A stretch of 64,000 nucleotides of DNA, from the NCBI RefSeq assembly GCF_030684315.1, contig NC_081358.1:98476756-98540755 (forward strand). Reading direction: 5' to 3'. Below the pieces are notes generated by a model. The model had not been told where the DNA came from. It saw nothing but the letters and a program-made list of their open reading frames with translations, and did no database searches. The DNA comes from Stegostoma tigrinum (lineage: Eukaryota). The position numbers and the translations under genes were made by a program. Positions 14,713-60,374 of the stretch are shown one piece after another; within the stretch, counting starts at the first letter, position 1; the number at the start of each line of letters is the position of its first letter.

Positions 14713-15453
14713 AGCTACTCAAATAAAGGTGTGATCCTTAAAATAACCCAAATCAACCATCAAGTTTAATGTTACCCACCACTCCCTTATCAAGTATTAG
14801 TAGCCTCACGTGCACTGCAGACCAGAACAATGACAGGTAACATTTTTTATCCACCAAAAGAAGTCACGGAAAGCAGAAAATTCTACCAAATAATCAATTC
14901 CACAACCAACACCACCATACATATACTTGCAACATAAATACTGCAATATGATCAGAGATAAGACTCCTTCCCAGTTCTTTTCCAACCAAAAACTTGCACT
15001 GATATAATATTTCTAGCACAGTTAAAGTTCTACACAGTTCACAAGAGAGTGATCAACAAATGTGAGGTGGAGATACAAAAAAGATGTTATGACAACTAAC
15101 CAGAAGTCCTGGTCAGGTATATTGGTTTTAAGTAGTTTCTTCTAAAGGAAGAGATGAAAATTAAAAGTATCATAGAAAGCATTTCAGAGCTTAGGCCTTG
15201 GCAGCTGAAAAAACAGAGCAATTAAAATGATGCAGATATACGGGAGGCCAGGAATGGAAGACTCGGGGGTCTCAATCTCCCATTTTTGGAGTTTGGGTGG
15301 TGGTGGTGCTGGGGAGCAGAAGGATCATAGCCAGTTGGAAAACAGTTTAATGTAATTAGGGAGACATATAAAATTTAGAAAGAATACATTTTCATAAAAT
15401 GTTTTCAGTAATAAGGAGCCTTTAACATAGCAAAACACCCTATGTTTTACAAG

Positions 15454-15685
15454 GATAGCAGGAACTGCAGATGCTGGAGAATCTGAGATGACGAAGTGTA
15501 GAGCTGGATGAACGCAGCAGGCCAAGCAGCAGAGGAGCAGGAAGCCTGGCATTTCAGGCCTAGAACCTTCTTCAGAAAAATCTGAAGACCTGAAAATCTG
15601 AAAAATCTAGGCCCGAAACACCAGCCTTCCTTCTCCTCTGATGCTGCTTCGCCTGCTGTGTTCATCCAGCTCTACACCTTATTAT
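15454..15685. mobile_element. Fold-back mini-element made of Penelope-like 3' ends
   Basis: Inverted arms (gtgtagagctggatgaac.. / ..gttcatccagctctacac); TSD cctatgttttacaag at 15439-15453 and 15686-15700. Confidence 0.8.
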
Positions 15686-16431
15686 CCTATGTTTTACAAG
15701 AGTCTTTTCAAATAAAATTCAACAAGCCACATACGGAGATATCAGAACAAATAACCAAAAGATTGATCAAAGAGAAATGATCTTGAGAAGCATTTCAAAG
15801 GAGGAAGCCAGTGAACCAGGGATATATAAAGATGGAATTTTTGAGCTTAAAGCCTTGACAGATGAAAGCATGGTCCCGAACGATGATGCAAAATTAGCAA
15901 TACTCAAGGGCCAAAACTGCAGTGACAGCGTATGTCACAATCACAGATGCCTAAATGTACTTTATAGTCGGTTAAGTATTTTAAAAGTATAGTCATTGTT
16001 GTAGAAAACAGCAACCAATTTGCACACAGCATGTTCCTACAACAGCAATGGGATGACTATATAATCTGCTTGCATGATGCTGACCAAGATTAAAAAAATT
16101 GCTAGGCCATAAGGGAAAATTTCCCTGTTCATTTTTGAAATATTGTCATGCACAAAATTAAAAAAATTCTTCCAGACAAAGCGTTCATCTTTGCATTTAC
16201 TTGTGGCTCGGCCCCAACTCCTTTCAGACATAACCAAATTTCAGCAGGTTTTAAGGCACTCTGATTGCACAAAAGCATCCTGATTCAAGTTTTAGAAAAT
16301 AAGATCCATAAAACAATGTACAAGTTACAGCTATACTCAGAACCAGTGTGATCAAATGCACTCAAGCTGCCCAGACAGCCATGTGCACCACGTGATTTCG
16401 TGTTCACATAAGAAACGGTGAGACAATTTTA

Positions 16432-16557
16432 ATAGAGATTACAAGGTGTAGAGCTGAACGAACACAGCAGGTCAAGCAGCAAAGGATGTGCTGTGTTCAT
16501 CCAGCTCTACACCTGGTTATCTCAGATTCTTCAGCATCTGCAATTCCTACTATGTCA
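16432..16557. mobile_element. Internally deleted fold-back mini-element
   Basis: Short inverted arms plus tail; TSD gagacaatttta at 16420-16431 and 16558-16569. Confidence 0.7.
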
Positions 16558-16694
16558 GAGACAATTTTATTAATCTGGATAAAAAAATTCCCAAAATGGT
16601 TTCAATAAATACTTCTTAAAGAATAAATCATTGTTTCTGTTTGTAAATTCAGTTCAGTTATGTTCTTCCATGGTATAATTGTATGAAGTCAATC

Positions 16695-21060: not shown

Positions 21061-22207
21061 AAACAGAAGTTGCTGGAAAATCTTAGGGGGTCTGGCAGCA
21101 TCTGTGAGGAGAATTAACGTCTCGGGTCCGGTGAGCCTTCAAAACTGATGGTGGCTCAGAAGATATCGGTTTATACGCAGAAGGTATCGCATTTTCTGAC
21201 GTTGCACGCTACCTATTATTAGAATGTGGAGGTGCCGGCTTTGCACTGGGCTGGACGAAGTCGGAAATCACTCGACACCAGGTTACAGTCTGACATAACA
21301 AGGTGTGGAGCTGGATGAACACAGCAGGCCGAGCAGCATCAGAGGAGGAGGAAGGCTGACGTTTCGGGCTTATTCGCTTCTTCAGAAATGGGAGTTCCTA
21401 CTATCTCTGAACCAGGTTATAGTCTAACAAGTTTATTTGAAAACAAACAAGCTTTCGAAGGGTCAAATAATAAGTCGCTGCAGGTCATCCAAACTGTTAG
21501 ATGGTGTGAATATAGTGTCAACAGCTGAATAACGAGCAAAGGGATAACCTATAGTCTGATTAAATGAGGCAGAGAGATAATTACAAAAACTTTAAAAATA
21601 AGGTGGTGTCAGAGACGATCCAAATGACTGGAATAACATGATAGGTATAACAGTTACATCCTGAGTTGTTGTAATCCAAAACTGTGCAAACCAATTACGG
21701 TCGAGAGATCATAATAATTTATCCAGGTGGTGGTGACGAAACAGGACAGTAAGGAAGATTTTCCAGATACAGGACAGTGTGGTGGGGTCACATGTAATGT
21801 GATTATGAACCCAAGATCACGGCTGAGGCTGCCTTCATGGGTACAGAGCTTAGCTATCAGTTTCTGCTCGTGATTCTGTGTTGTGTATCTTGAAGGCTGC
21901 CATTGTTTTAGTGTCTGCATGGTGTCACCAATATACCATGCCTCAGGCCATCCTTGCCTGCTGCGTATGAATTAGATAACATTGGCCAAGTCACATGAGT
22001 ACCTACCATATATATGGTGGGTGGTGTTCCCACGTCTGTTGCCAGTATCCATGTTGATGACCTAGCGTGTCTTGCAGCGTTTTCTGTGTCAGGGTTGTGT
22101 GGTGTTGTAGTTGATGTTCCCCTGATGGCTGGGTAGTTTGCTGCAAACAATGGCCTGTTTAAGGTTTTTCAGTTGTTCGAAAGCGAGAAGTAGATGTATA
22201 GGGATGA

Positions 22208-22427
22208 TGGATGTGAGATTGCTCGCTGAGCTGGAAGGTTAGTTTTCAGATGTTTCGTCACCATTCTAGGTAACATCATCAGTGAGCCTCCGATGAAGCC
22301 TTCGGAGGCTCACTGATGATGTTACCTAGAATGGTGACGAAACGTCTGAAAACTAACCTTCCAGCTCAGCAAGCAATCTCACATCCAGAACCTCAACCTG
22401 AGCTACAAATCTTCTCAAAACTCGCTA
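22208..22427. mobile_element. Near-perfect palindromic mini-element with 12-bp TSD
   Basis: 86-bp arms 22208-22293 and 22302-22387 with 2 mismatches, 8-nt loop, 40-nt tail; gtatagggatga at 22196-22207 and 22428-22439. Confidence 0.9.
22310..22349 (+). ncRNA. Minimal type I hammerhead ribozyme motif (Penelope-associated)
   Basis: tca-CTGATGA-t-gttacc-tagaat-ggtgac-GAAAC-GTC-tga: conserved core, 6-bp stem II, palindromic ACGT stem III, tca/tga stem I; activity untested. Confidence 0.75.
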
Positions 22428-25400
22428 GTATAGGGATGACCTTGATGAGGTACTCATCGTCATCGATGACATGTTGAAGGCTGCGAGGAACATGGCGTAG
22501 CCTGTCCGCTCCAGGGAAGTATTGTGTGATGAAGTGTACTCTATTGGTCGAATCCTGTGTCAGTCTTCTGAGGAGGTTGTTGCGGTTTTTGGCAGTGGCA
22601 CGTCAGAACTTGCGATCGATGAATTGAGTATCATATCCCACTCTTATGGGGATAACCTTCAAAATCTTTGGGTGCCCGTTGTGTTCCTCCTCATCTCAGC
22701 AGATTCTGTATGTGTTTGCAGGGCCTATGCATACAGGATGGCTTCTTCAACATTTTTAGGGTGGAAGGTAGAGAAGTGCAGCATCATGAGTTTATCCGTG
22801 AGGTATTTAGGTGTCCATCCTTGATGCAGATGCATGTGTCCAACCGTGAGACTAATTCTGAAGAGTAGTCCATGGTAAGTCTGATGGTAGGATGAAACTT
22901 GTTGATATCGCTGTGTAATTGTTTCAGTAATTTCTTGCCATGAGTCCAAAGGAAGAAAATGTCATTGATGTTTCTGGCATACAGCGTTGGCTGGAGGTCC
23001 TGCACAGTGAAGAAATCTATCTTGAACCTCTGCATGAAAACGTTGGCATATTTGGGTGTAAATCATGACTGTTCCTTATATTTGGGTAAAGAACTGGTTG
23101 TCGAAGGTGAAGATGTGATCGAGGATGAAGCAGATGAGTTGCACAATGGTGTCTGGAAATTAGCAGTTGTTGATATGGAGTACTATGGCTGTTGCAGCTA
23201 TGCTGTCATCGTAGGGTATGCTGGTATAGGGTGCCGAAATATCCATTATGATGAACAATGTTCCTGGTTCGACTGGTCCGTGGGAGCTGAGTCTCTGTAA
23301 GAAATCTGTAGTGTTGCAATGAAAGCTGATGGTTCCTTATACAATGAGTTTCAAGGTGCCCTAGACATAACTGGAGAGGTTCTCACACAGAGTCCCATTG
23401 CCTGATACAACAGAACACCCAGGTGTGTTGGCTTTGTGTGTCTTTGGAAGGCAGTAGAAAACTCCTATGTGAGAAGTTCAGCGGATGAAAGTTCATATGA
23501 TACTCTGAAGGCTGGATCAAAGGTCTTGATCAGTTGACAGATGCGTTCTTTGATCAGATTGGCAGGTAGCTAACGGTAGTATTCCTAGTTGTTCAGTTGT
23601 CAGTATGCTTCTTTGCGGTAGTACATTCCGTTCCATATGACAATGGCTCTTGCTTTGTTTGCTGGTTTGACAATGTTGCGATTAGTCTTCAGAGCATGGA
23701 TGGCGTTGTGTTGTGCTTAGTTGACGTTTTGTGCTATCTTGTAAGCACAGCTGATTAATCTGGTGTTAATGTACGTCCTGACAGCTTGAACATGCATGTT
23801 GAGCCAAGGGCAGCGGCCTTCTGGAGGAGTCCAGTTCAACACTTTCTTCTTTGGTCGCTGCACCATGGATCTCTCTGTCAACTGTTCTGGCTCGTAGGTT
23901 GTCTCATTGGGCTTGCTGCTGACATCTTGAGTTTGTGGAAGAATTCCCGGAGCCTCATTCACCTGATGAATTTCTCTGTGTCTGCAGCCAGACCACTGTG
24001 GTCCAGTTAGGTAGTGTGGCAGAAATTGGATCCTCGGCTGAGAACTTCAATTTTGACCGATGCGTCAGACAAGTTGATGGACTTCCCTGTGATGGTACTG
24101 GTTTCAATTCTGGTTCCAGGCAAAGCTTGGACTGCTGGTGGTGATGTCAAGTTTCTCCATTTTCTTGTTCTTGGTGTGTATGTTGGCGTAGTTCTGTTAA
24201 CCTCATCTGCTTGGCATTATCTCCTAGCTGGCCCACTGAATCCTGAGCGCAAGCTGAGAATGTAGACTCTACCTCGATTTCAACGTTGCAGCATCTGCTG
24301 TGGAGTTGGTGTACAAGATGATGAGGAGTGTGTAAGAGGTGTGACAGCAGAGTCTGTTGGCATAGTATGTGTTATAATTCGTCTTTGGCCCAAATGACAC
24401 TGCTCAGCAATCGCCAGACAGTGCTGTTCCCTCCAAGTCGGGGAACACTTCAACAGTCAGGGACATTAAGCCTCCGATCTTTGAGTAAGAGTCCTTTGAG
24501 GCGACCTTTGAAAGAGACAAAATGCAGAATCGCAATGCAAAAACTGATAACCAAGATAGCCTCAACCGTGATTTTGGGTTCATGTCACGCTACATATGAC
24601 CCCACCACACTGTCCTATATCTGTAAAATCTTTCTTACTGTCTTGTTTTATCTCCATCACCTGGATAAATTATTACGCTCTCTACCTTAGATTGTACTGT
24701 TTTGGATTACTATGACTATGGTTAAAGACTCGTCATGTGACTCTTATACCTAACATGTTATTCCAGTCATTTGATTTGTCTCCAGCACCACTGTATCTTT
24801 AATTTTTTGTAATTATCTCTCTGCCTTGTTTAATCAGATTATGGGTCATCCCTTTGCTTGTTATTCAACTGTCAATACTTTACTTACACCATCTAATAGT
24901 TCGTATCACCTGCAGGCCTTATTATTCGGCACTCCACTCACACCATTGTATGGTCTTTTGACCTGCCTGCCCTTGATCTCTCTCTGCCCATAAGTTCTGT
25001 GTTCTGTGTGCTTTTCTGTCACTTGACTTGGCGAAGGTGCTACACTTCAGAAGTTTGTGATTTCAAATAAACCTGTTGGACCTTGATGTGCATATTTGCA
25101 GCTCCCTGAAAGTCAGAGGACGGGTAGATAAGGTGGCTTAAAAGGTATAAGGAATAGTTGCCACTCTGAACCAAGACACAGGACAGAAGAGGAGAGGAGT
25201 TCTGCTGGAACTGCATAAAAACACTAGTTAGACTATCATTGGCATACTATATATAGTCTGATCACACTTTAGAAAGGATGTGACTGTACTAGAGAGGGTG
25301 ATTTAGATTCTATAAGGTATAGTTAGTGCAGATAGGAAGGCATTTGTTTTCCATTTGTAGAGGGTTCAATAACCAGGAAAAATAAATATAAAGTAAGAGA

Positions 25401-25459
25401 CTCCGAGGAAAGATGAGAATTTTGTTTCATTCAGAGGATGGTGGGAGTCTGAATCAGAA

Positions 25460-34837: not shown

Positions 34838-35016
34838 CTACAAAGGAACAGGTAATATACTATTGAAGCAAAGTACTACAGAGACTGAAAACTTTAAATT
34901 GAATGCAGGAAATACTGAACAATCAGTGAGTTATTCGTCGTCAGTGGCAAGAGAAAAAGTGTTAACTTTTAGAGCAGTAATCTTAGGTCAGGGAATGAAT
35001 AAATAAGGAGGCCTAC

Positions 35017-35166
35017 CTGGAATATCCAGTTTTGGAATGCTGATACTCGAGTAAAAACTGTAGGATACCTCTCCATAACACAGGAGACTGGTCCAAAGCT
35101 TACGACACCATGGACAATCCAAGCTCCATCACTACCCTGACAGTTCAGAGGGCCACCAGAATCTCC
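35017..35166 (-). CDS. Elastase-like protease exon 7 (catalytic Ser): [50 protein letters not shown]
   Basis: acAG/GTaggc, 150 nt, phase 0/0, GDSGGP motif. Confidence 0.95.
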
Positions 35167-35768
35167 CTGTCACAACAAAATGAATACAAAGTAATGAGAT
35201 GAACTCATTTAGTTTATTACTTTCACTAATTACATAACATAACATTGACTCAAGGGCCTGCTAGGTTGCAACTATTCATGTGATATAAACCCTGGTTTAA
35301 TTAGACTTTTGAATGGACCTCGCAAATTATAAATTTCATGTTGATCTCGCTCTCTGATCATCCTCTCTGCAGCTGTAATATTGTATGCTGTACCATTACA
35401 CTATGCACTTTTTATGGCATATCCTGATTTTTGCTTGCGTGCAGTACACTTTTCATTGTACTTAAGTACATGTGACAATAATAAATCGAATCAAATTAAA
35501 AACAAAAACAAATTTCTGGAAAGGCTCAGCAGGTCTGGCAGCATCTGTGGAGAGAAATCAGAGATAACATTTCAGATTGAGTGATCCATACAACTTGGAG
35601 TTAACTCTGATTTCTCTCCACAGATCCTGCCAGCCCCTGCTAAGTTTTGCCAGCAATTTCTGTGTTTGTTTCTGATTTACAGCTTCCGCAATTCTTGCGG
35701 ATTTTACAGATCAGATCAAATGCAGCATTTGCATCGTAATGACATTATAAATTAATAGAAGTCATTAC

Positions 35769-35914
35769 CTGACATCCAGCAGTCACACCATCACCCCCAG
35801 CACAGATCATATCTTCAGTGACTGTGTTTGACCACCAGTACGGAGACGAGCATGTCTTGTAGTCCACCACGTGGAGCAGAGCTTGCTGCAGTGTGGGAGA
35901 TGGAACACCAAAAG
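35769..35914 (-). CDS. Elastase-like protease exon 6: (P)FGVPSPTLQQALLHVVDYKTCSSPYWWSNTVTEDMICAGGDGVTAGCQ
   Basis: ttttcAG/GTaatg, 146 nt, phase 1/0; CELA-type CS...WW...V...MICAGGDG motif. Confidence 0.95.
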
Positions 35915-37467
35915 CTGAAAAAGTGTATCAATGTAATTTTATTTTTAGTGGCTCTGACAGTCCCATCAAACCTATATTGTCGGCTTTCCGGTCCAGTAAT
36001 AAACTTATGTATTTAATGAGTTGTTATTTATGTCATGATTACCAGATTACTTTGTGCCACTATGTTGTAGAATGGTACTTACAGGTACATCTGAATCAAT
36101 ATCTGCCCTAAAACATCTCAGGCATGCTTTGAAGACATAATGAAAGATATAGTGACATCTAATGGCTAAATGTGCATGCTGCAAATTTAGTTTTAAGGAG
36201 TGAGATTTTCTCTAGCTACCACACATGTCAAAGCATTTGCGTGGTGGACAATGGGGAGTCTGAAGCTGAAACTGCATTAATCTCACACTTAACAGAAGCC
36301 GCTGTCTCCACTAAGGAGATAAACTTTGTGTGCTGAAACAAACTGTAAGGAGGATTGTTAAGAACAGATTGCTCAATACAGTTGCCTTCCAGCTAAGGAA
36401 GCTGTATGGTATTTTCATGTCAGGCAATTGAACAAACACTGCCTCCTAACAATGACTTTGGGGACTAAGTATGTTGTTGCAAAAAAATTCTGACCACTGC
36501 ATCACTTCTACATCATTTTTTACTGCTGAGTTGCTGCTGGAGATTTGAAGACAACTTTTGAAACACATCAAGAAAGCAGAAGGAACACTTTATCAAGATT
36601 TCAACAGCACTCCATCAATAATTGTTCTATTAGAAGACTTCATCAAAACAGCCTAACTGCCGTGCCATTCCATGCTATTGAACAAATAGGAATCATCAAG
36701 GACAAGACTGTGCTGGCCATTAATATCTTGTTTGAGATTGCTAACGATCTCTAATGGGAAAAGCAGGAGTACAAAATATAAGACAGAGCAGCTGTAGGAC
36801 AGTGACAGGAAAACACACTGTTCAATCTCTGCCACTGTCAGTAGAGGACATGCTCTTTCACTGAAACTCCTCCTCCTTTAGGACCTTGCCACATTGTATG
36901 CCCTTTCTCACTCAATCCCTGAACCAATCTGAAACAGGATGTTCTTTATCAGCCTGTACACTCCACACATTCATGGAGGTGGGTTTATGGAGCCAATATA
37001 CCATATTACTAGAAACATTGTGCCCAATTAGTGCTAAAACTAGATTGTCGAACAAGTCTTGGCATAGCATCTATTCAACTGCAGTGTTCACATCATTTTG
37101 ACCAAATATGCACCAAGTTGTCCATCTGCACTATTATGAATCCTTTCCATAATGCATATTTGCACTGTTAATAATTTCAGGCATATCTAAGGGAATTCAA
37201 CAATGGACACTGCAGAAGTCCAAATTGAACTTTTTAAACGGCACCACAAAATCTGCAATACCAAAACAGGCCATTCAGTTCAACTGCTCTATGCTAGATT
37301 TTACACAGTGACTTTATTTTAATTTAGTTACTCTCCTTGCCCTGAGTTCCATATTCATCTATTCCCTTCCACCTCTTCTTAAATGTACTATGTCTTTCTA
37401 CTGCCCTGTAGCAGAGCATTTTGCATTTTTGCAGTTATCCATACAAAGAAATGAATCTTAAAGTTTT

Positions 37468-37679
37468 AGGTAGTGGAAGCTACCAATGCTGGAGAGTCTG
37501 AGATAACAAGGTGTAGAGCTGGATGAACACAGCAGACCAAGCAACATCAGAGGAGCAGGAAAGCTGACGTTTTGGGTCTGGACCAGTCTTCAGAAGAAGG
37601 GTCTAGGCCCAAAACGTCAGCCTTCCTGCTCTTCTGATGCTGCTTGGCCTGCTGTGTTCATCCAGCTCTACACCTTGTT
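37468..37679. mobile_element. Fold-back mini-element made of Penelope-like 3' ends
   Basis: Arms ~37501-37590 and ~37596-37683; imperfect TSD atcttaaa(g/t)tttt at 37455-37467 and 37680-37692. Confidence 0.8.
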
Positions 37680-37746
37680 ATCTTAAATTTTTTGTTTGTT
37701 CTGTTAACTATTGTGTTATAGTTATACCCTCTTGTTGTGAACTTAC

Positions 37747-37883
37747 GTTGAGTTAATCCCCATCCAGTAATGTAACAAGGATATCCATTGGGTAGAATGT
37801 AACCAAAGCTTGGTAAGATTGCTATTTCTACATCAGGAGTACCACTTGCAGGTTGTTTCAAACGCAGTAGGGCAATGTCATTT
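37747..37883 (-). CDS. Elastase-like protease exon 5 (catalytic Asp): [45 protein letters not shown]
   Basis: cttttAG/GTaagt, 137 nt, phase 2/1; DIALL and CYITGWG motifs, also visible in ORF 37658-38029. Confidence 0.96.
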
Positions 37884-39589
37884 CTAAAAGTCAAAGAGTG
37901 AAAGGTGAATGCAAAGATGGTAAGAGATCCCAGTTGTCTTTCGGAGTTAGTTGACCTCAAAAGTACCTCCAAATGTACCCCAGCACCTTTGGCTAAGAAG
38001 AAGGGAACAAAATCAGTCAACATTCTCATGGTTGAAAGCTCTGTTAGTTAGCTCTGGAGGAAAAGTGTAACATTGATTAGTTGCAATAAAATTAAGCTTA
38101 CAATTATACAACACCTTTCAAGACCTCAAGATGTCTCATCGTCCTTTGAGGCCAGTAAATTCTTTTTGCTTTTAGGGATCGATTTGTATTTTGAATATAT
38201 GAAAATTAAAATTGGTCTGTTTTCCAACTTCAAAAGCCCATCATCTCAGCCTAAAACTCAATCAAATTAGTGAGATGTGACTTCCCAAGCACAAAGCTAT
38301 GCTGGCTATCCCTAATCAATCCTTTCCAAATGCATGTAAATCCTGTCCCTCAGAATGTCCTCCAACAACTTATCCACTACTGAGGTAAGGCTTACCACTC
38401 TGCAGTTCCTGGACTGTTCCTTACAGCCTTACTTAAATAATGGCACCACACTAATTAATCTCCAGTCTTCTAGCACCTCACCTGTGGGTATTGATGATAC
38501 AAATATCTCCAAAATGGACCCAGCAATCTCTTCCCTAGCTTCCCACAAAGTTCTGGGAAACACCTGATCAGTTCCCAATGATATATCTGTCTTTGTGCCT
38601 TTTAAGAACCCAGCACCTCATCTTCACCAAGTTCTCCAGCTTCTATGTCCTTTCTACACTAAATACAGGCATGAAATACTCATTTAGTTTTGACGGTATT
38701 AGACAGGAACTTTCAAAAGTTGACTGAGTGTGGCTATTTGCAGGTAAAGGGATGGTTGGCATGTAGGACACCTTTAAGAATGAGATAACAAGAGTTCAAA
38801 GACTGTATGTTCCTGTTGTTCTGAAGGGCAACACTGGTAGGTGTAGGAAATATTGGATGACTAGAGAAATTGAGGCTCTGGTCAAGAAAAAGAACGAGGC
38901 ATTTATTGCGTATATACAGCTGGGATTGAGTGAATCCACTACACGATGATACTGTAAACCTCCCTTATCTCAGGTCTATCATTTTCACTGGATATGGACA
39001 GGGACAGTTAAAACAAAGTTTGCTGTATATTTGAGGCTTGGACAGATTTTTGTAATCAGTAAGTGATTCAAAGCTTACGGGGAAAAGGCAGGAAAGTGGA
39101 ATTGAGGATAATCACTGATTAGTGGAACATACTTGACGGGCCAAATTGTCTACTTTTGCTCCTGTGTCTTATTGTCTTACAGACACAGCACTGAATTCAA
39201 TCACCACAGTAAAAATGCACTTGACATATAATCCAGCATCTGATAATGATGTTTGAAGTGAATACTTTCAACCCATATGTTTCAAAATCTTCCCAACTTC
39301 TCAGCAGGCTTTCCAAGGTCTCCTAACTCTCAAACAATGACAGATTTGCAGAATTCTTCTAAATCCTGCCAACTGATCAACATACTACGGGACAGGAGAA
39401 ACAAACTTCCCTGCGACTACCAATATTGACCTGAATGCCAGAGTATATGTAATTGGGGTCACAATCTAAGCCTAACTCAAAATTCTTCCTGTATTTGGAA
39501 TATCATGTGATGCTTTCTTTAATATAAGAAACCTAAATTTCTAAAGAAAAGATTTTGCTGATTCCAGGAGGAAACAAAAATTTGGGAAA

Positions 39590-41775: not shown

Positions 41776-42427
41776 TTTTCTTTTCTGAGCTAGAAATATT
41801 GTTAAATATTCAGTTCCCAGTTCCCCTCCTCATCATACAACCATATTGCTGTAATGATAATTATGTCATAACTATTTACCTCTATTTGTGTCTTTAGATC
41901 ACAAGGCAAATGTTGTAAGTGCTGTGTGCACTCAGGTAGAGTGCCCTTAATTTTGCCTTGTTGACATTATTCGGATTTGAGGCATGCTCAGTGTTTGGTT
42001 TCATTTCTCCTCCCTTCTAACAAGAAGTAGAAAAGTCTTGAATAACGTTATCAGCCGAAGTCCCCTCCTCTCAGAATCCTTCCCCATACCTCTGTCCCAT
42101 GGAATTGCTGGATTAAACCCACCCCAGAAGCTTACCAAATCAACCTGGAAGCATGTTAGTGCCAGTCCTGTTAAGATTTAGCCCATCCATTTTGTACATG
42201 CTCTGCCTGCTCCAGAATGGCTTATCAGAAATTTCTCATAAATCTGATACCCTCTCCCCTAATCAATCCTCCACCCATTTGTTCAATCTACTCATCCTTC
42301 TGTTCTTATGCTCAGCATATGTTGCACTGGCGGTAGTCCAAAGATTATTGCTTGCTTCCTGCCTACCTCTCTACATTCTGCGTTACCTATGTTATTGGAA
42401 CCAAACTGGACAGTAACTTCTGGCTAA

Positions 42428-42830
42428 GATAACAGTGTGGAGCTGGATGAACACAGCAGGCCAAGCAGATGTTTCAGGCCGCGACCCTTCATCAGAAAAG
42501 GGGGATTGAAGAGGTGGACAGAAGAGGGATTGTTCCACATAACCTACAAAGTGGCAGGCATAACTTGGACCCATGCAGGTACTGGCTCCATCCCTGCCTC
42601 TAACTTGTCTGTCTCCTCTCCACCTATCTTCTCCTCTATCCATCTTCGAACCACCTCCCCCTCTCTCCATATTTATTTCAGAACTTTCTCCCCCTCCCCC
42701 TTTACTGATGAAGGGTCTAGGCCTGAAAAGTCAGCTTTTGTGCTCCTAAGATGCTGCTTGGCCTGCAGTGTTCATCCAGCTCCACGCTTTGTTATCTCGG
42801 ATTCTCCAGCATCTGCAGTTCCCATTATCT
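42428..42830. mobile_element. Fold-back Penelope-like derivative containing an RT remnant
   Basis: Minus-strand MGPSYACHFVGYVEQSLF joined to a plus-strand 3' UTR with hammerhead-like core at ~42706-42732; TSD cag(t/c)aacttctggctaa at 42411-42427 and 42831-42847. Confidence 0.85.
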
Positions 42831-43709
42831 CAGCAACTTCTGGCTAATCCCCCACCCTTAGAAGGATTAACTACAGGCTGCACATTATTGTCAGGGCCTA
42901 TGATCAGATAGCCAACACACCATCCTGGATTCATAGTTCAAGCTGCAATAACAGCTGCCTGATCCTTTGACTATGGAATCCTCTATCATTATTGCCATCT
43001 CCTCTCTTGGTGATATGTTCAGAACAGAGACATTCCCCACTCTATGCACTTTTTTAAAATTTGCTTCCCCCTCTCTCAGTGCTGTAAAAAGAATGAAACC
43101 GCTTCCCGTTCTCTGTGCTCTTTTAAAACTTGTTGTCTCTTGTCCAAAGGCTGTGCTCAGAAAAGACGAAACTGAGGTTTAAAAAAAAGGTTTTCAAAGA
43201 GTTTGATAAGTTAGAATTAGAAAATAATGTTTTCAACCATCGTACAGACCAGAACTGTGGGCTAAACATTCAAATAGATCTGACAGGGAATCCTGGAGAA
43301 AAACTTCTTTGCCAAGAAAATGTGAAATTTGTTTAAATATATCGGATTGTATTGATACATTCAATAATAGGATAATATAATAGAAATTGCATATACAGAA
43401 ATGAATCTCTAAAGCAAATGCCATGAATGTTTTGTAGTAAGGGAAGAGAGTATCTACATTTTTAAGATGTTGGGAAAGAGCAATTTGAACAGATGGAATT
43501 TCAGTTCAACACAAAGGGATGCAGAAGGAGGGAGAGCCAACACAATGGAGCATTTAAAGAATCTTAGAAAGAACATGAAATAAATAATTTACCATTACCT
43601 TCATTGCACTAGAGAAATATGTCTCAAAAGAAGTTGTTCAGTAATTATTTGATTAAGAATAGCTCCATGCAGATGCACTGGTAAATTTTAAAATGTCAAT
43701 CTGAATTAC

Positions 43710-43835: not shown

Positions 43836-44952
43836 CTGAAAGAAAAGTAAAGAAAAATTCCTCAGTGCCTTTTGCAATCTAAGGTTACTCCAAAGCATTT
43901 TACAGATAATTAAGGACTTTGGAGGTCTAGTTACTTTTGTAATGTAGAAAATGCAGGAGTCAAAATGTGTAATAGCAACCTGTCAAAACCAGCAGTAAGA
44001 CAAGGACCAGATAACCAGTTTAATGAGATTGGTTGGGGGTAAATATTGAAAAATCACACCAGAGGTAATTACTCTGCTTTGCTTTCAAGTAATAAGATAC
44101 ATTACACCCATCTAAGGAGGCAGACAAAGTCTTTTTATAATGTCTTTCTTGACAAAAGGAAATAAAATCTGCACTTGCAAGAGAATGTGGGGGAAACTCA
44201 TTTCTTTGAAGTGGAAGAGTGAGGTAAATCTTCTGCTTGCCTCTAAGACACTGCCTTAAATCCAACCCAATGTCCTGAGACCAGGTTCATTTTCGAGCAG
44301 AATAGATGCCTAATGGGCATCCAAAATAAAAAATCCTGTCAAGAGAATACTTCCATTGCTGGAAAAGAGAGGCTTGTTGCAGGGGGATTTGTTGTTACAT
44401 GCGCGAAGACAAGGCAGGTTCTTTAAAACACTGAAAAGCCATAAAAACAAAACAAATAACCTGAATTTGTATGTTTTGACCAAAAACCGTGATGAAAGAA
44501 AAGCCAGTTACTTCATAATATGTTTATATTAAGACATATGTCAAGTTATCGTCAATGTTACAATAAATATAGTACCTGACAAGTTCCCTTAATTTGCTAG
44601 AATATTTCAGCTTCTATTTAAATAAGCCAAGTTCAAAACTTTTCAATAAGCTTTTGGTCAAACTATCAAACTGGCAATACTGGTTCAAATGGAAATTAGA
44701 TTTATTTCAGAAAATGACAATTTTACACTGAAGTTAATGAGTAATTTGAAACTCAAAACAATGAGCACAGTGAGCATTGAAAGAATGTGACATTGGACCA
44801 ATGCTTTTCAAAGCTTTCCACCACCAGGTTTTCTTTGTCTCATTTTTGGTCTTTGTAGATTAATTGATTATAAGTGAATGCTTTAATTAGTCAGCAATGT
44901 TTTTATCATATTACATAACTATTAGGATAATAGAATGCAATGTTGATAGTCA

Positions 44953-45309
44953 GAGATAACAAAGTGTGGAGCTGGATGAACACAGCAGGCGAAGCAGCAT
45001 CTTAGGAGCAAAAAAAGCTGACATTTCGGGCTTTTCTAATGAAGGGTCTAGGCCTGAAACATCAGCTTTTGTGCTCCTAAGATGCTGCTTGGCCTGCTGT
45101 GTTCATCCAGCTCCACACTTTGTTATCTCGGATTCTCCAGCATCTGCAGTTCCCATTATCTCAGCAACTTCTGGCTAATCCCCCACCCTTAGAAGGATGT
45201 TTTACAGGCTGCACATTATTGTCAGGGCCTACGATCAGATAGCCAATACACCATCCTGGATTCATAGTTCAAGCTGCAATAACATCTGCAGTTCCCATTA
45301 TCTCTGATA
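44953..45309. mobile_element. Fold-back Penelope-like mini-element carrying 123 bp of captured flank
   Basis: TSD caat(g/t)ttgatagtca at 44938-44952 and 45310-45324; 45162-45284 duplicates 42831-42953. Confidence 0.8.
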
Positions 45310-45462
45310 CAATTTTGATAGTCATTTTGGTTAGAAATTCCTATATATCTCTAATGTATTACATAGGTTATAATTCTAATTTGTATAAGTATAAAGGAAT
45401 GTCTCCAATGTAAAAATGATTGCGCAAACTGCTTGTTGCACATCTTGAAGCAATGTACTTAC

Positions 45463-49430: not shown

Positions 49431-49467
49431 ATTGAAATGGGAAATGAGCTCAATTGTCAAGCAGTTT

Positions 49468-50835: not shown

Positions 50836-52039
50836 TTTCTGTGAAAAAAGAACAGTAATTACATATTTGAAGGGATTAATCAGAATGTCATCAGACATAC
50901 ATTTTCCAGTAGTCGATTACTAGGTGATGACGACGAATAACAGCCATGGTCTATTCATTGCATCCTGTAAGCTAAGGCTGATTCTGGTTCTCCTACCTGC
51001 AACCATCTAGAAACAGAAACAGAAATTGCTGGAAAAGCTCAGAGGTCTGACAGCATCGGTGGAGAGAAACCAGAGTCAATGTTTCAAGTCAAGGGACCCT
51101 TCCTCAGAACTGGTGAGATCATGATGAGATCATTTAACTTAGCAAAGGCCTACCATTGGAGCTGATCCCTATTTGGCTTATGTGATACAGTGTGGATGAT
51201 TTCTTTGGATTTGAATACCTGTAGAGTGATTGTGTTGGGGAATAGACTAGATTTTGTTTTGCTGTATTTTAAGATCTTTCAAACGGTGTTTTAAAGTTAG
51301 ATAGCTTGTTTTATTTTTGTCTTTTGTGAAATGAACTTCTGTTTTACTTTTAAACAAAATTTGTAACCTTGTGTGCCTATTTTTCAGGGAATGACCTCCA
51401 TGTTAAATAACAATAAGTCATCTATCAAGCTAAATTTCATTCTGTGATCTGACTTCTCCAATAGTAACATCAGCTGAGATCATAATAATACTGCAGAATT
51501 GTCTAATTGTCTAAAGTCAAAGATATCTCCATTGTGGCAATGTTAAAGTTTAAATTCAGTTAAAAATAATCTAGAAATAAGTAACTGGTATCAGTTAAAG
51601 TGATAGGTGTTCAAATTCTTCTAAATTCTCAATTGGTTCACTAATGTCCTTTAACGACAAAAGCACAACATGCTTACTAATTGTGGCCTGTATGTGACTC
51701 CAAAATTGATTCTTACCTGCCCTTTGAAATGGCCTGAGATATCAGGAACTGCAGATACTGGAGAATTTGAGATAACAAGATGTAGAGCTGGATGTACACA
51801 GCAGGCCAAGCAGCAGAGGAGCAGGAAGGCTGACGTTTCGGGCAGATATGAATTTATAATTAAACGTTACCAATGGTTAAAAAAAAAATCACTCTACCAC
51901 CTTATCAGAAGCAATTGGAAATATGTACTAACTGCCATCCTCATCAACATCAATGTCCTGAGAATAAATTAATTAACAAGCAGATTCTGTCTGGCAATTT
52001 CCCAAGTTGGCAGACCTGACTTGGTTTAAAATAAGTAGG

Positions 52040-53990
52040 GGCAAATTACTGCAGATGCTGGAATCTGTACTGAAAGCAACAGATGCCAGAGAGCACAGTA
52101 AGTCAGGCAGCACCCATGGAATGAGATACAACTAATGTTTCAAATTTGGATGACTCTTCATCAGACCAAAGTGAAGTATGAAGGGGGCACCATTTATGCT
52201 ATAGTTGGGGGGGTGGTGATGGAGTGTAAGGTGCTGGTGGAGAAAAGAGGTTGATAGTTTAGATTAAGTGATTGAAATGTGAGAATAGCAGAACAATGGT
52301 GTGCCTACCTGCCAGACTTGAAAGAGAAAACAGTCCCAGAGGGTTGGGGGATGGCAGAGAGGACATAGTGACAGCTAATGTAACAACTAAAGCTAAAAGA
52401 AAGTGAAGAAATATAAGAGATAATAGGAACTGCAAATGCTGGGGAACCTGAGATAACAAGATGTGGAGCTGGATGAACACAGCAGACCAAGCAACATCTT
52501 AGGAGCAGGAAAGCTTGTGTTTCGGGCCTAGACCCTTCATCAGAAATGTGAGTTGGTTCACAATTTGAAGGTGTCGAACTCAACATTAAGTCTAGAAGGC
52601 TATAAAGCACCTTGTCTGAAGATGAAACATTGTTGTTCCAGTTCATGCTGTGATTCACTGGAGCACTGCAGCATTCTGAGGACAGACAAGTGGGCATGCA
52701 ACCAGGATGCAGTGTTAAGATGACCAGCTATGAGAATGTCAGGGTCAAGCTTGCGTACAGACCGAATGTGTTCGGCAAAGCAGTCACCCAGTTTGCATTT
52801 GGGTTTTTCCAATGGTGCAGTGAATACAATACACAAGATTGGAGGAGGTACAGGTGAAGTGTTGCTTCTCCTAGAAAGATTGTGTAGGCTCTTGGATGGT
52901 AAGCAGGGAGGAAGTGAAGGGGCAGCTTATATGGGATGATGCCGTGGGAACAGGGGAGGTTGGTGGTTGTGGAATGGATGAGGTGTCCTGGAGGGAACAA
53001 TCCCTGTAAAATGCAGGCAGGGGGAGTGAGGAGGGAGATGTATTTGGTGGTAGCATTCTGCTGGTGTTATTTGAAAGGCTGAGAATGGTTCTTTGAGTGT
53101 GGTGGCTGGTGGGATGAAAAGTGAGGGCAAGGGGATCTGTTGTGAGTAATGAGAAGGGGCAAGGGCAGAAGTACGGGTGATAAGTTGGATGTGGTTGGGG
53201 GGGCCTGTCAACCACAGTGGCAGGAAACCACGGTTGTGGAAGAAACAAGCCATGACAGCCGCATTGTTTTCGAAGGTGGCATCATCCGAACAGGTGCAAC
53301 TTAGGAAAAGGAATGGGAAGAATGGGACGGACTCCTTGCAAAACATTGGGTGTGATCTGCTGTACTGAAGGTAGCTATGGGAATCAGTGGCTTTGTAGAG
53401 GATGGCAGTGGACAGTTTATTCCCCGAAATGGAGACAGAAAGGTCAAAGAATGGATGGGAAATGTTAGAATTGGATGATATGAAAGTTATAGAGGGGTAG
53501 AAATTGGGAGGCAAAATAAACAGATTTTTCCAGGTCACAGTGGAAACATGAAGCAGCACTGAGAAAAGAGTTGTGGGAGGGGGCCAGTGTATGACTGGAA
53601 CAAGGATTGTTCCACATACCCCAAAAAGAGGCAGGCATAACTGAGACCCATGTGGGTGCCCATAGCCACTCCTTTGATTTGGCAGAAGTGAGATGAATTA
53701 AAAGGAATAATTGTTCAGTGAGACAATAAGTTCAGGCAGAGGAGAGTGATGGTGAACAGAGATTGTTCAGCCCTCTGGTTGAGGAAAAAGCCGAGACCTC
53801 TCAGACCATCCTGATAGGGATGGAGATATAGTGGGATTGGACTTTCATGATGAAGAGGAGGCAGTTAGGGCCAGGGAACTGGAAATTGTCAATATGTTGG
53901 AGGGCATCAGACGAATTGTGGATGTAGGTGGGCAGGGTCTGGACAAGTGGAGAGAGGAATTAGTCAAGGCAGGAAGAAATGAGCTTGGTG
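52040..53990 (-). mobile_element. Decayed Penelope-like element (separate family) with nested 3'-end fragment at ~52417-52545
   Basis: ORFs KCKLGDCFAEHIRSVRK..GHLNT (GIY-YIG) and ILYKATDSHSYLQYSRSHP..KESVPF (RT thumb); hammerhead-like CTGATGAAGAGTC..GAAAC on minus strand at ~52136-52164. Confidence 0.85.
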
Positions 53991-56689
53991 GGGTAGGAAC
54001 AGGTTGAACTGGCTTGTGGTTTAAACTGATTTTTGTTCCAGAGAGATAGGAATGAAATGCCACCCACCCTGTTGGCACACCAACTTTTGACACATCATAG
54101 TTGACTGTGGAGACTGGCAAGTGATGTGATGTGCCCATTTCTCTAGGGCTTCATTGTAGTTATTTTAGAAGCTGTAGGGCTCTCATCCTTCACACCCCAT
54201 CCACTGCCCCTCATCACTTCATGGCACCTCATGTCCCCACCTCCATGTTACCTCACACCTCCATGCTCTCCATGCCAATGCATGACTCCACCCATTCCCC
54301 ATGCCCCTTCGTATCTTCATGCCACCTACATGATACCTTTTACCCACATCATTCCCACTAACCCGATATTCACAAAGGCAGACCTCAGGATCCCTGTGGA
54401 GATGAAGAAGAAAACCTTCTAACAATTTCAAGGAGCTCTCAATCATACATGCTTCATATAGGCGAAGAAAATCTCATTCCTGAAACCCAATCTAATATTA
54501 TAAATCGTCTCAAGGATACATCTGTTACAAACAAACAAATTTCATTCAGCAACTGCATTAAAGACAGTTGATTGTTTCCAATTATACCTCAACCAGGACA
54601 GGAAAAAGACATGCAGTGGTAACATTATTCAGAACTACACAATAGCCATCTAGCCAAATGAGTTAATTGGTTCTGTAATCTGTTCACAGCCTCTTTAAAT
54701 CATCAATAAAAATGTGATGTTAGCCTAATCTTTCTTTTAACTGTTAAAACTCACCCAAGCATTCATAATGTTGTCAGCTACAATTCAAGCTCTTGGAAAA
54801 TGGCAACAATTGACTCCATTGGAATCGCAAGAACAGATGGTATTTTGTTTTCCAGCCTGCACCCTACAATCTTCTAGAAACCAGTGATTCGTTTTCAAAG
54901 TAACACAGTGTGAAGCTGGATGAACACAGCAGGCCAAGCAGCATCTCAGGAGCACAAAAGATTACTTTTCGGGCCTCCGTGTGATTTATGCCAGACCTCC
55001 TTCACCTGCAGTAAAATTGGAATTACAGAAGTATAGAAGTATAGTATACCTCTTTCCTTTGTTCATCAGGCCTACACTGGATGTCAATAACCCAAAGCAA
55101 TTCTAACAACAGAATGTACCCAATGTTATTTATTAAAGGAAAATATAGTACAAAAATACTGCAAAAAAAACTTTCCTGTATGTTGCTTACAACTACAAAT
55201 GAGCCCTTTTACATGGACAAGTCCAAAAATTAGACCAGATCAGAAGATCAGCCCAGTCCATTTCAACTTCTTGTCATTGATCAATTGACTTCCTTGAGCT
55301 AACTACATTTTTGCTGTGAGCTAAGCTGTCTTATACTATTTCCATACCAAGAAGCTGTAGATCCAGCTATACAGCCTCCAGCAATTGATAAGTTTGGCCA
55401 CTGGCAAATGTCACAAATTTTTGTAATGTTTTCCAAACTGGTTTGATCAATTAACTCAATAAGACTTGCTTGTGGCTCCTTGAAAAGATGCTTATCTCTC
55501 ACCTTCTATGAACTTTGACTGTGGCTTGCGCTGGCTGTTCACCACTTTTACTTCATCCACTGAACTGTATGATATTTACACAGCACAATACCAGGATATT
55601 TGCATATTCAGCTGATGAATAGTTCATGTGATTGCACCTGATTCACTGTATGTGTTTTAAAACTTTAGCTTTACTATGTCAGTTCAGTCCATTACTGCTG
55701 GGTGACACGGCTTGATGTAAATAAACAAACACATGGGTTTGGGGATGCCACCACCAGGCATGATTAGGTTGCCATCTACCTCCAGGTCCACTGCCTCCAT
55801 GACTGGAGCATTCCATCTCAAAGCTGATACTAAACAAAGTCTATAAGACCATGACATGTAGGAGCAAAAGTAGACCATTCAGATCATCAATCCACTCAAT
55901 GTGATCAGATAATCTTCAACTCCCACTATCCTGCCTTTTCCCTAGAACACTTGACTCCCTTACTGATTAAACATCTGACTAACTCAGTTTAGAACCTACT
56001 TAACAACCCAGCCTCAGAAGCTGTCTACAGTAAAGAATTCCATACATTTACCACCCACTGAAAGAAGAAATCCCTCCTCTTTTCTGGCCTCATGAGGCAA
56101 TCAGTTTTTCTGAGATAATGCTCTCAGGTCCAAGACTCTCCCACCAAATTGTCTGCAATTGTCTCTCAAGCCCCCTAAGAATCATAGAATTCTTACATTT
56201 TAGACAAGACCACTTGACCCATCAAATTTGCTCTGATCCTCCAAAGACCATCCCACCCAGACACACCACCCCCACCCCGCACCCTCTCAGACATATTTTA
56301 CATGAAGTTTACATTCCCTCCAACTACACAGGAGTGCCTCAAGTCCTTGAAGTCAGCAGTGACTACATGATCACCTGGCTCAGGTTAAAGCCAAGACTCT
56401 TGTTTGGGTGAAGTTTCAGCTCATACCAGCATGTTTTGTTTAAAATGAATACTGATAATTTGAGCAAATCTACAGCAACATCTTAAACTCGTTGAAAAAC
56501 TCCCACGTTGTTTTCATTCTTTATCGAGTACATGGGTAATAAAATACATCTGATAATTCCGACTGCACAGGTGTAATAGCAATAAAATATTCTCACATTT
56601 ATAATTCTCTATTTTTGTTGAATCAGTACTGTTTGAATCAAACTGTGAGACATGGTGTGTGGTAATTTCATGGAACTACTAATTCAGAA

Positions 56690-58553
56690 TAACAAAGTGT
56701 GGAGCTGGATGAGCAACAGCAGGCCAAGCAGCATCTTAGGAGCACAAAAGCTGACGTTTTGGGCCGAGATCCTTCATCAGAAAAGAGCTGGGGGGGCAGA
56801 GGGTTCTGAACTAAATAGGGAGGGAGGGGGAGGTGGATCGAAGGTGGGTAGACGAGAAGATAGGTGGAGAGGAGACAGACAAGTTAAAGGGGTGGGGATG
56901 GAGCCAGTAGAGGTGAGTGTAGGTAGGGAGGAGATCGGTCAGTCCAGGGAGGACAGACAGGACAAGGGGCCGGGATGAGGTTAGTAGGTAGGAAATGGGG
57001 GTGCGTGGCTTGAGGTGGGAGGAGTGGATAGATAGATGAGAGGAAGAATAGGTTAGGGAGGCGGGGACGAGCTGGGCTGGTTTTGGGACGCAGTGGGTGG
57101 GGGGGTAGATTTTGAAGCTTGTGAAATCCACATTGATACCATTGGTATCAGGGTTTGCAAGCGGAATATGAGTTGTTGTTCCTACAACCTTCAGGTGACA
57201 TCGTCGTGGCACTGCAGGAGGCCCAGGATGGACATATTGTCCAAGGAATGGGAGGGGGTGTTGAAATAGTTCATGACTGGGAAGTGCAGTTGTTTACTGC
57301 GAACTGAGCAAAGGTGTTCTGCAAAGCGGTCCCCAAGCCTCCGCTTGGTTTCCCCAATGTAAAGGAAGCCGCAACGGGAGCAGGGGATGCAGTATACCAC
57401 ACTGGCAGATGTGCAGGTGAACATCTACTTGATGTGGGAAGTCTTCTTGGGGCCTGGGATGGGGGTGAGGGAGAAGGTGTGGGGGCAAGGGTAGCACTTC
57501 CTGCAGTAGCGAGTTTTGAGAAGTTTACAGTTTACAGTTGCAGGGGAAAGTGCCAGGTGTGCTGGGGTTGGAGGGGAGTGTGGAGCGGACAAGGGAGTCC
57601 CGGAGAGAGTGGTCTCTCTGGAAAGCAGACAAAGGTAGGGATGGAGAAATGTCTTTGGTGGTGGGGTCGGATTGCAGATGGCGGAAGTGTTGGAAGATGA
57701 TGCGTTGGATCCGGAGGTTGGTGGGGAGGTACAGGAGGACAAGGGGGTTTCTCTTTTGGCGGTTATTGCGGGGACGGGGTGTGAGACATGAGTTGTGGGA
57801 AATGTGGGAGACATGGTCAAGGGCGTTCTCAACCACTGCAGACGGGGCGTAGTTGCTGTCCTTGAAAAACGAGGACAACTGAGATATACGGGAGTGGAAT
57901 GCCTCATCCTGGGACCAGATGCGGTGGAGGTGAAGGAATTGGGAATAGGGGATGGAATTTTTGCAGGAAGGTGGGTGGGAGGAAGTGTATTCTAGGTAGC
58001 TGTGGGAGTCAGTGGGCTTGAAAGGGATATCGGTTTCTAGGTGGTTGCCTGAGATGGAGACAGAGAGGTCTGGGAAGGTGAGGGATGTGTTGGAGATGGT
58101 CCAGGTGAACTTAAGGTTGGGGTGGAAGGTGTTGGTGAAGTGGATGAACTATTCGAGCTCCTCTTGGGAGCATGAGGTGGCGCCGATACAGTCAATGTTA
58201 TGGAGGAAGAAGTGGGGTTTAGAGTCATTGTAGGTACGGAAGAGGGATTGTTCCATGTAACTTACAAAGAGGCAGACTTGGCTTGGGCCCATGTGGGTAC
58301 TGGCTCCATCCCCGCCTCTTTAACTTGTCTGTCTCATCTCCACCTATCTTCTCCTCTATTCATCTTCTTTCCGCCTTCCCCTCTCTCCCTATTTATTTCA
58401 GAACCCTCTCCCCCTCCCCCTTTTCTGATGAAGGGTCTCAGCCTAAAACATCAGTTTTTGTGCTCCTAAGATGCTGCTTAGCCTGCTGTGTTCATCCAGC
58501 TCCACACTTTGTTATCTCGGATCTCCAGCATCTGCAGTTCCCATTATCTCTGA
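56690..58553 (-). mobile_element. Penelope-like element with inverted 3' repeat at ~58298-58553 and 13-bp TSD
   Basis: VVYCIPCSRCGFLYIGETKRRLGDRFAEHL (GIY-YIG) and RT remnants; tactaattcagaa at 56677-56689 and 58554-58566. Confidence 0.92.
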
Positions 58554-60374
58554 TACTAATTCAGAAGCTTGGTTTAGTGCTATGGGGTAATGGGTTCAAA
58601 TCAGTCACTGTAGTTAGTGGGATTCAGTTGGTTAAAAGGAAAAATATGAAAGTTAATTTCGATAATAATGCCGGTAAATTATAATTGTTGTAAAGAGACA
58701 TTCAGTTTTCTGCTGTCCATTGGAGAAGGAAATCTGCTATCCTTACCTGTTCCAACCTACATTTGACTGTAGGCTCACAGCACTGCAGTTGACTCTCAGC
58801 TGCCTCCTCTCAGTTCAAAGGCAGCTACAGATTGGGGAACAAATGCCAGGCTCGCCAACAATGCCACATCCTGGGAAAGAAAATGAATAAGTTAAAGCTT
58901 AAATATTTACATTTGAGCATTTTTGCAGGAGTGTGATCTCAATTCTGACAATGGCCCACGTGCTGAGCCTGGGTGCAAGTACAGAAATTGGGATTCCGGC
59001 ACTGTTTTTGAATATTGAATATTCTTTTTTGTCATGTACATTAAAAAAATTCAGTGAAAATTGTGTATTGATGCTTCTATATAGGCACCATTCACAGAAC
59101 AAAATAAAGTAAGATAACTTAAAGAGAGTCCAACTTTCTTCTTTGCTGCTGTACCACCACGAGAGTCTTAATGTGGACTGTCCAGCCCATGCTATGTCGC
59201 CAAGAGTGTCCTGCTCCGGGCTACACTTGTCTGTGCTATGCCTGTGTCAGGGGCCTACTCCATTTGGAAAATGGGAGCCCCGCTCCAGGCCGAATGACTG
59301 ACTCAGCCTCTGAAAAATGCCACCGCCGCTACGATGCCCATCCCTGATCCAAACACACCGGCCTAATCCTTGGCCTGAGGACAACAACACCCAGACCAAT
59401 CCCCCAGAGCTCCATTTATTGAGCCCTGACTGCCACCAGTGCATTCCACTGTCCTAGATCTGACTCTCATTAGCTTTCATAGTGATTTTGAAAGATGGTC
59501 TTTATTATTTATTCTTAATATATGAGCATTGCTACCCAGATCAGCATTTGTTGTCCAAGATGCATTTGATATATGGACATCTGTTTCTCAAAAGGTTCTA
59601 ATAATTGTTTATTATTGATAGAGAGCCCTACTGTGTGACTCTTGGTAAACACTGCCTAGATTAGGGTTACATTGGTAACATTATCATACATGAACATGAG
59701 ATAAAGAACAAATCTCACTAACTGACAATTTGCCTGTCAGCTTAAAGGATTTTATTACCTATAATTTAAGCTTTCAAACACTCTATTTTTTCTATAAGGA
59801 TACATGTCCAGACAATTGTATTGCCGTGGCTTTTTCAAGGTCATGATGCATTTCATTTCTTTTAATTTTGTTTCCAGAGATGCTTTTAAGCAGCTCTGAA
59901 TGCGCAGGTGGAGTCTTATAATGGACATAAAATCCCAGTAAGCTTCTTTAATTGTCCTTAAGTTGCTTTTAACAAAAAAAAAATCAGCTGCCAGCATATC
60001 CCAATCACATCTCCGGAAAAATAGCCTGGTGTTAGAATGAAATGACCACCCTGGGGTATGATATTTAGTTCCATTCGTAGCCCTGGTTTTAACAAGATCC
60101 TGCCTCTCTCATCTTTTCGTCTACACTTTCCAATTCTGGGTCTTGCAATTGGCTGTTTGCTTAGTTTCCTGTCTTCACCTGATTGAATCTACACTCTACC
60201 AGGCTTATACATTTCTTCCATTCTGTTTGAATGCTCAATATGACATGGCCAGATAGGAATAGTGTGACAATGACAGCTTAGACCATAAGACATAGGAGCA
60301 GAAATTAGGCCATTTGGCCCATCAAGCCAGCTCCACCATTGGTTAGCCATCCATGTTTACAAGGAATAAAATTA

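Follow-up and report, generated by a model that had tools for sequence, protein, structure and literature searches.

Fold-back Penelope-like insertions in the Stegostoma tigrinum genome and their probable origin by two-ended priming on one RNA

What kind of event leaves two short copies of a retroelement 3' end facing away from each other, with a tail on one side only? The question is raised by a 64,000-nt stretch of the Stegostoma tigrinum genome (assembly GCF_030684315.1, contig NC_081358.1, positions 98,476,756 to 98,540,755 of the forward strand; hereafter the window), in which an initial annotation had picked out at least eight insertions (E1 to E8, Table 1) built from hammerhead-bearing arms of Penelope-like elements (PLEs). 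They were thought to be either a class of tiny ribozyme elements shaped like miniature inverted-repeat transposable elements (MITEs) or the products of a stereotyped fold-back integration mechanism. The reading we consider probable is that they are 5'-truncated head-to-head insertions of endonuclease-bearing (EN+) PLEs, made anew at each site by two-ended priming on one sense RNA, with synthesis running off at the RNA start or at a ribozyme-cut end and the products joined by microhomology.

The layout described for the window, or a deleted form of it, holds for all eight insertions, each of which has a target-site duplication (TSD) and a one-sided tail. Outward arms are present in E1, E2, E4, E5, E6, E7 and E8, and E3 consists of one arm plus a tail stub of about 17 nt. 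The TSDs, located by mismatch-tolerant search at the element edges, are 12-17 bp long in the window and do not extend to the 19 bp first given, and "tiny" does not describe E8, which holds a 1.6-kb broken open reading frame (ORF). Seven of the eight belong to one family group (Neptune-type) and E4 to a second (Poseidon-type); a third family at 35498-35705 (E9) has the inverted arms ascribed to it, with a direct repeat of only 7 bp.

The same anatomy recurs across the genome. Sampling of 10-kb stretches at 140 regularly placed points (1.38 Mb once N is excluded) gave 379 aligned arms, 339 of them assigned to the main family (family A) at a score of at least 40; 172 of these form the 86 outward pairs that were resolved within the reference, and 167 are solo or long. 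Family B gave 21 short-arm matches, too few for placing an edge. Most pairs lack an ORF and are about 210 bp long, with 72 of 86 measuring at most 300 bp, which, provided the sample is representative, extrapolates to about 1.7 x 10^5 such pairs in the whole genome. A single arm is tailed in 79 pairs and no arm in 7; pairs with two tailed arms are absent. The TSDs are not chance matches, since a score of at least 9 was reached by 66 of the 86 pairs versus 1 of 254 swapped-flank controls; their length has a mode of 14-16 bp and a range of 9-19 bp among sampled pairs, and among 115 short solo arms just 15 are flanked by one. At 59 sites the same A-rich patch is found 6-8 nt beyond each of the two TSD edges, in opposite orientation by strand.

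If whole fold-back units were transcribed and re-inserted as a MITE-shaped non-autonomous family, one would have to account for junctions that differ almost everywhere: 78 of 79 junction triples in the genome sample are distinct, a result that favours de novo formation. Fixed ends and a fixed interior are likewise not common to the copies, as membership among MITEs would require, and long ORF-bearing copies are built alike. The two hammerhead cores of a pair are on different strands, and a long hairpin is the predicted fold of the whole element, as it is of E5 RNA. Spread of units would find some footing in the inversion junction common to E6 and E8, in a junction identical between L198/L199 and L203 on different contigs and in a class of 727 elements with one exact centre (described below). 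However, the E6/E8 junction is matched end to end by those two alone among the 40 scored of 1313 candidates, and the 727 class covers four haplotypes, with separate TSDs, in the 20 members examined. Unit spread thus seems very improbable, and it is the stereotyped integration mechanism that gains from the unique junctions and from the layout common to long copies. The distinct junctions, together with the alike A-rich patches, suggest that pairs form afresh at each insertion and that both target ends are treated alike.

The main family has the features of an EN+ PLE, namely a single ORF with reverse transcriptase (RT) and C-terminal GIY-YIG endonuclease (EN), an inverted 5'-truncated copy, a tail at one end and a TSD. 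The broken ORF of E8, on the minus strand, comprises an RT thumb, a Cys-rich linker and GIY-YIG; the GIY-YIG piece reaches the Pfam cut-off for PF01541, and a Pfam search of the RT-thumb piece returned no match. Among 20 long genomic relatives, open frames reach 863 aa with RT and GIY-YIG matches, and many have the inverted one-tailed partner; the 860-aa frame of L158 matches RVT_1 (E 1.3e-5) and GIY-YIG (E 0.0025), both below curated cut-offs. Translations of L158-L160 have a Cys-rich linker between RT and EN, and since such a zinc-finger-like Cys motif is a feature of Neptune, and also of Nematis, in the accessible text of PMC8557442, the linker would place the main family with one or the other. 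Partial tandems of the pseudo-long-terminal-repeat (pLTR) kind, in which the tail continues into the element 5' region, were seen at L177 and other loci among 30 fetched. In E4, the one copy inspected, visual reading of the sequence gives a stop-free frame that opens with an ATG at hammerhead helix II and continues to the tail end; the ORF of the Anolis Poseidon element PAc likewise begins at hammerhead helix II and runs through the tail, according to the available part of Frangieh et al. 2024 (PMC11167929; the source for PAc throughout).

The 3' ends of the arms suggest how a one-sided tail could arise. With the C of CUGANGA (CUGAUGA) as +1 and the predicted ribozyme cut between +28 and +29, these ends are bimodal, at +90-96 and +126-133 (322 arms), and agree with the pair of RT start sites that delimit the PAc tail in vitro, where the PAc protein cuts and extends both strands. 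In the simplest account, a staggered cut of 14-16 nt would leave two ends that prime cDNA on the same sense RNA, two entry points on that RNA about 35 nt apart would define the one-sided tail, and each cDNA would extend toward the RNA 5' end until the cDNA ends are joined via short microhomology, giving outward arms, one tail and a TSD. Junction gaps do centre near zero, with small overlaps. An element would stay short if its entry sites are only 100-135 nt away from the 5' end of the RNA. For most arms this 5' end would be a putative transcription start near -4, immediately before the hammerhead, and for roughly 1-2% it would be the end left by ribozyme cutting at +29. To our knowledge the RT of PLEs has no RNase H, which would permit one RNA to be copied twice. 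In L1 twin priming the second priming also comes from the other target end and yields non-overlapping inverted pieces, whereas both arms here copy the same stretch.

That one RNA may serve both arms is indicated by their coupling. In 82 pairs aligned to a full-length reference, arm lengths are short-short in 54, long-long in 24 and mixed in 4 versus 35.5 expected, and within the long-long pairs the two lengths are correlated (rho 0.60). Partner arms are mostly of the same subfamily haplotype and have 21 rare variants in common, with few mixed cases (L084, L091). Two unrelated RNAs as templates were rejected on the strength of this coupling and the mostly common haplotypes. Coupled lengths, common variants and near-zero junction gaps would equally suit snap-back, by which a single cDNA, or an antisense RNA in the proposal of PMC3846280, folds back and copies itself into the second arm. 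Because the second arm would then be copied from within the first strand, the tailed arm would be expected to be the longer one toward 5' in every pair, but it is so in 23 of 79 pairs, with the tailless arm extending further in 52 and the two being equal in 4. Moreover, an antisense template has no reason for ending at a sense-strand ribozyme cut. We regard snap-back as unlikely, and "fold-back" in the sense of one self-copying cDNA falls with it.

Two-ended priming on a sense RNA also makes sense of where the arms stop at their 5' side. In the sampled pairs, 111 of 172 arm 5' ends lie along the front edge of the hammerhead (-10 to +21), none at +22-27 and 7 at +28-30. Of the 41 edge arms, 29 lose the exact upstream match between -3 and -5, which is read as run-off at a putative transcription start followed by trimming. 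The second edge falls at the predicted cut. Exact patterns searched genome-wide found 727 perfect palindromes centred on +29-32, with 148, 53 and 24 at control 4-nt palindrome centres (+13-16, +24-27 and +56-59, respectively), and 3622 arm breaks at +29 versus 595 at +31. Twenty of the 727 palindromes have different flanks and four haplotypes, with a one-sided tail in 19 and a TSD score of at least 10 in 17. In the window, the gap in the E6 left arm starts at the predicted cut, give or take 1 nt.

Head-to-tail junctions, in which a second copy resumes after a tailless end, gave 174 matches genome-wide. A manual count of the 100 that head the list puts the resume point at +29 in 79, at +28 in 7 and elsewhere in 14. 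These 100 come from 59 loci. A +28/+29 junction is present at 46 of the loci, and 15 consist of 67-78-nt units in arrays that contain as many as nine junctions; several arrays vary by 1-2 nt internally. In public DNA contigs, 5 of 12 joints shown fall at +28/+29, tandem joins occur at about -3 to +1, and loose ends lie at both 3' sites and at about -1, matching the genome sample, an agreement that is not independent since these contigs (X2-X4) are from one study and possibly from the source sample.

An alternative explanation for the edges retains two-ended priming but takes -4 and +29 as polymerase stalls at RNA structure or as later deletions at hairpin centres. In its favour, the region is structured, with pyrimidine-rich sequence upstream, and the self-complementarity of the 4 nt that follow the cut would promote joining or slippage; array junctions can also be near-uniform (8 of 9 at C5:1683551), as from DNA slippage or a circle. 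Yet the three other 4-nt palindromes in the arm give 5-30-fold fewer centres, the head-to-tail junctions, which are free of hairpins, still resume at +29 in most of those listed, and the variation inside several arrays does not suit it; stalls or deletions are therefore improbable as the source of the edges. Instead, the thousands of genomic copies that start at the predicted cut likely record germ-line cleavage, to judge from the positions of their ends. If that is the case, the enzyme may sometimes return from +29 to the site where it entered and copy the 68-nt piece again, producing the tandem arrays. Telomerase repeat addition also involves a short template that is re-copied up to a fixed 5' boundary; the likeness to 68-nt re-copying is an analogy only. 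Taken together, the insertions may form a fossil record in which an enzyme dimer makes two copies of a single RNA, one from either target end, the hammerhead cuts in the germ line and a telomerase-related RT re-copies a fixed template of about 68 nt up to about ten times. We put this fuller account forward tentatively, judging its chances to be slightly below even.

The hammerhead itself is unevenly preserved. Most arms had been credited with a core or a decayed version of it; in the window the core is exact in 2 of 15 arms (E3 and E4 right) and has 1 mismatch in 5, and the other 8 are unmatched at up to 1 mismatch, with both arms of E2 and the left arm of E7 beginning downstream of CUGAUGA. 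In young genomic copies the parts of a minimal type I hammerhead (core, helix II, bulged base and palindromic helix III) are intact. The core, the bulged base before helix II and the palindromic 15.2-16.2 pair are common to these copies and the hammerheads of PMC4209133, a study that already described dual minimal motifs on opposite strands 100-700 bp apart and that reported no in vivo evidence of PLE hammerhead cleavage. An Rfam scan of the window elements left the hammerhead families unmatched; matches to microRNA (miRNA) precursors were far below gathering score and were rejected as artefacts of hairpins.

Several observations weigh against the mechanism proposed here. The 52:23 bias toward a longer tailless arm (p = 0.001) is not explained by symmetric priming, and it would follow if the tailless start leads. 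One of the 20 palindromes (L228) is tailed on both arms, and some junctions, those of E6/E8 and L198/L199/L203, are re-copied. An extra G at -4, in 6 of 8 cases in one subfamily, is accounted for by the partner arm in 3 and is too thin as proof of a cap. With respect to cleavage, helix I is just 2 bp in the main family by inspection (as in D. virilis), short of the 4-5 bp in the hammerheads of PMC4209133, and minimum free energy prediction folds no single arm as a hammerhead. The head-to-tail pattern is biased toward the youngest subfamily and limited to 5' ends between about +9 and +34, and +29 is missing from the top loose-end rows in the public DNA contigs. Finally, PAc insertion in vitro needs no cleavage, and the available part of that study has no RNA reads ending at the cut site.

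Re-copying of existing insertions is a real minority route. The inversion junction of E6 and E8 suggests that the tailed arm of E6 was likely templated on E8. E7, 2.3 kb downstream of E6, holds 128 bp of E6 unique flank (45163-45283 versus 42831-42958, 95% identity), which has genome matches at these two places only and lies between the full arm and a second tail stub; it likely derives from a template jump onto plus-strand E6 read-through or nearby DNA. Host pre-mRNA as the E7 template was rejected, given that the trypsin-domain exons of this region are on the minus strand and the captured flank reads plus. These events are in line with the capture of host DNA by PLEs described in the consulted portion of PMC3846280. 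Element-plus-flank duplications resembling E7 occur at L058 and L143. L198, L199 and L203, on two contigs, have one inversion junction and one internal deletion in common and are a composite that was re-inserted as a unit.

Fillers between arms have varied sources. At L020 the filler (9282-9346) is an inverted copy of 8462-8524, about 800 bp upstream at the same locus, and represents local templating at the junction; at L022 (7604-7632) it consists of telomere-type hexamer repeats. The fillers at L026 (6995-7032) and L028 (2055-2126) are element sequence from downstream of the tail, which suggests that the template RNA extends beyond the tail. Of 30 copies that include the post-tail region (L190-L219), about half break inside a stretch of about 15 nt close to +250 and switch to the 3' untranslated region, giving mini-tandems of 300-400 nt (three units in L212); the query ended at about +250, so ascertainment is possible.

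How much of this was already known? The element class is not new, as the layout is known and unit spreading fails: an inverted 5'-truncated copy with a 30-40-bp tail and a TSD is typical of PLEs (Craig et al. 2021, PMC8557442; Arkhipova et al. 2013, PMC3846280), and the complex EN+ PLE insertions in the accessible parts of those papers have, as here, a head-to-head copy, a tail at one end, a TSD, palindromic junctions and captured host DNA. The insertions differ in that most pairs here are short (about 210 bp) and without an ORF and in their TSDs, 14-16 bp here versus 8-10 bp there, and the ends observed here argue for two-ended priming on sense RNA, unlike the antisense self-priming proposed in 2013. 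PAc resembles the present elements in its two internal RT start sites, in the cutting and extension of both strands and in a hammerhead directly preceding the tail. PAc is a Poseidon element and the main family of this genome is Neptune-type, and no sign of in vivo cleavage appears in the portion of the PAc study consulted, whereas this genome has thousands of copy ends at the predicted cut. Animal non-LTR retrozymes, as outlined in the available text of Li, Clavereau, Pollet 2026 (10.64898/2026.07.22.740005), are similarly non-coding, pLTR-derived and PLE-dependent. However, retrozymes are direct tandem units each with a hammerhead, whereas the pairs in the window are inverted, carry their cores on different strands and do not belong among them; the 68-nt arrays start at the cut and have no hammerhead, unlike retrozyme units.

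The remaining features of the window are collected in Table 1. The inverted repeat 21704-21835 / 24553-24683, with its halves 2.8 kb apart on either side of E4, is probably an older PLE insertion that received E4. Three open frames that match Pfam Trypsin (34972-35169, 35748-35927 and 37661-38047) are collinear on the minus strand and are predicted exons of one serine-protease gene, with E9 and E5 between them. Further copies of the same families lie at 13569-14712, 51736-51843, 52412-52546, 54901-54976, 6316-6428 and 62371-62483; among them are several solo arms and a long copy that contains a short inversion (14559-14712).

Table 1. Positions and structure of the Penelope-like insertions in the window.
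Feature	Position	TSD	Strand	Extent on element	Remarks
E1	15439..15700	15 bp, 15439-15453 / 15686-15700			older Neptune-type subfamily
E1 tailed left arm	15454-15578		minus	-3 to +124	
E1 tailless right arm	15597-15686			-1 to +92	spacer of about 18 nt between arms
E2	16420..16569	12 bp, 16420 / 16558			hammerhead core absent from both arms
E2 tailless left arm	16434-16481			+48 to +95	
E2 tailed right arm	16489-16557			from about +59	
E3	21277..21425	15 bp, 21277 / 21411, 1 mismatch			tail-stub partner 21394-21410
E3 tailless arm	21292-21392		minus	-7 to +94	core exact
E4	22196..22439	12 bp, 22196 / 22428			Poseidon-type
E4 arms	22208-22293, 22302-22387				98% complementary; tail 22388-22427; exact core at 22313 (+)
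E9	35498..35705				third family; 7-bp direct repeat only
E9 inverted arms	35532-35568, 35600-35636				
E5	37455..37692	13 bp, 37455 / 37680, 1 mismatch			
E5 tailed left arm	37468-37595			from about -2	
E5 tailless right arm	37589-37683			from about -2	
E6	42411..42847	17 bp, 42411 / 42831, 1 mismatch			
E6 tailless left arm	42428-42505				lacks +29 to +50
E6 antisense ORF piece	42518-42579				
E6 tailed right arm	42580-42830				
E7	44938..45324	15 bp, 44938 / 45310, 1 mismatch			
E7 tailless left arm	44953-45031			+17 to +93	
E7 right arm	45031-45162			about -4 to +128	
E7 captured flank	45163-45283				copy of E6 unique 3' flank
E7 second tail stub	45283-45309				
E8	56677..58566	13 bp, 56677 / 58554			
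E8 long copy	56690-58297		minus		tailless, 5'-truncated; broken RT thumb, Cys-rich linker, GIY-YIG (PF01541)
E8 tailed right arm	58298-58553			-127 to +133	

The origin of the tandem and inverted ends of PLEs and the in vivo cutting of their hammerheads are called open in the accessible parts of PMC8557442, PMC4209133 and PMC11167929. Literature searches, with most subscription papers, Repbase, Dfam and supplements outside their coverage, found no paper on such elements in sharks, on PLE twin priming or on genomic ends at a PLE hammerhead cut, and repeat addition by a PLE RT is not reported in the papers found. Relative to those papers, what would be new is evidence from copy ends for coupled two-ended priming, for in vivo cleavage and for re-copying of the cut piece. 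Hairpins of this kind can pass for MITEs or miRNA precursors. Their end statistics yield exact and testable predictions for the existing in vitro system: target cuts should be staggered by 14-16 nt, the RNA should be entered at two sites and have its 5' ends at -4 and +29, and a 68-nt piece should be re-copied.

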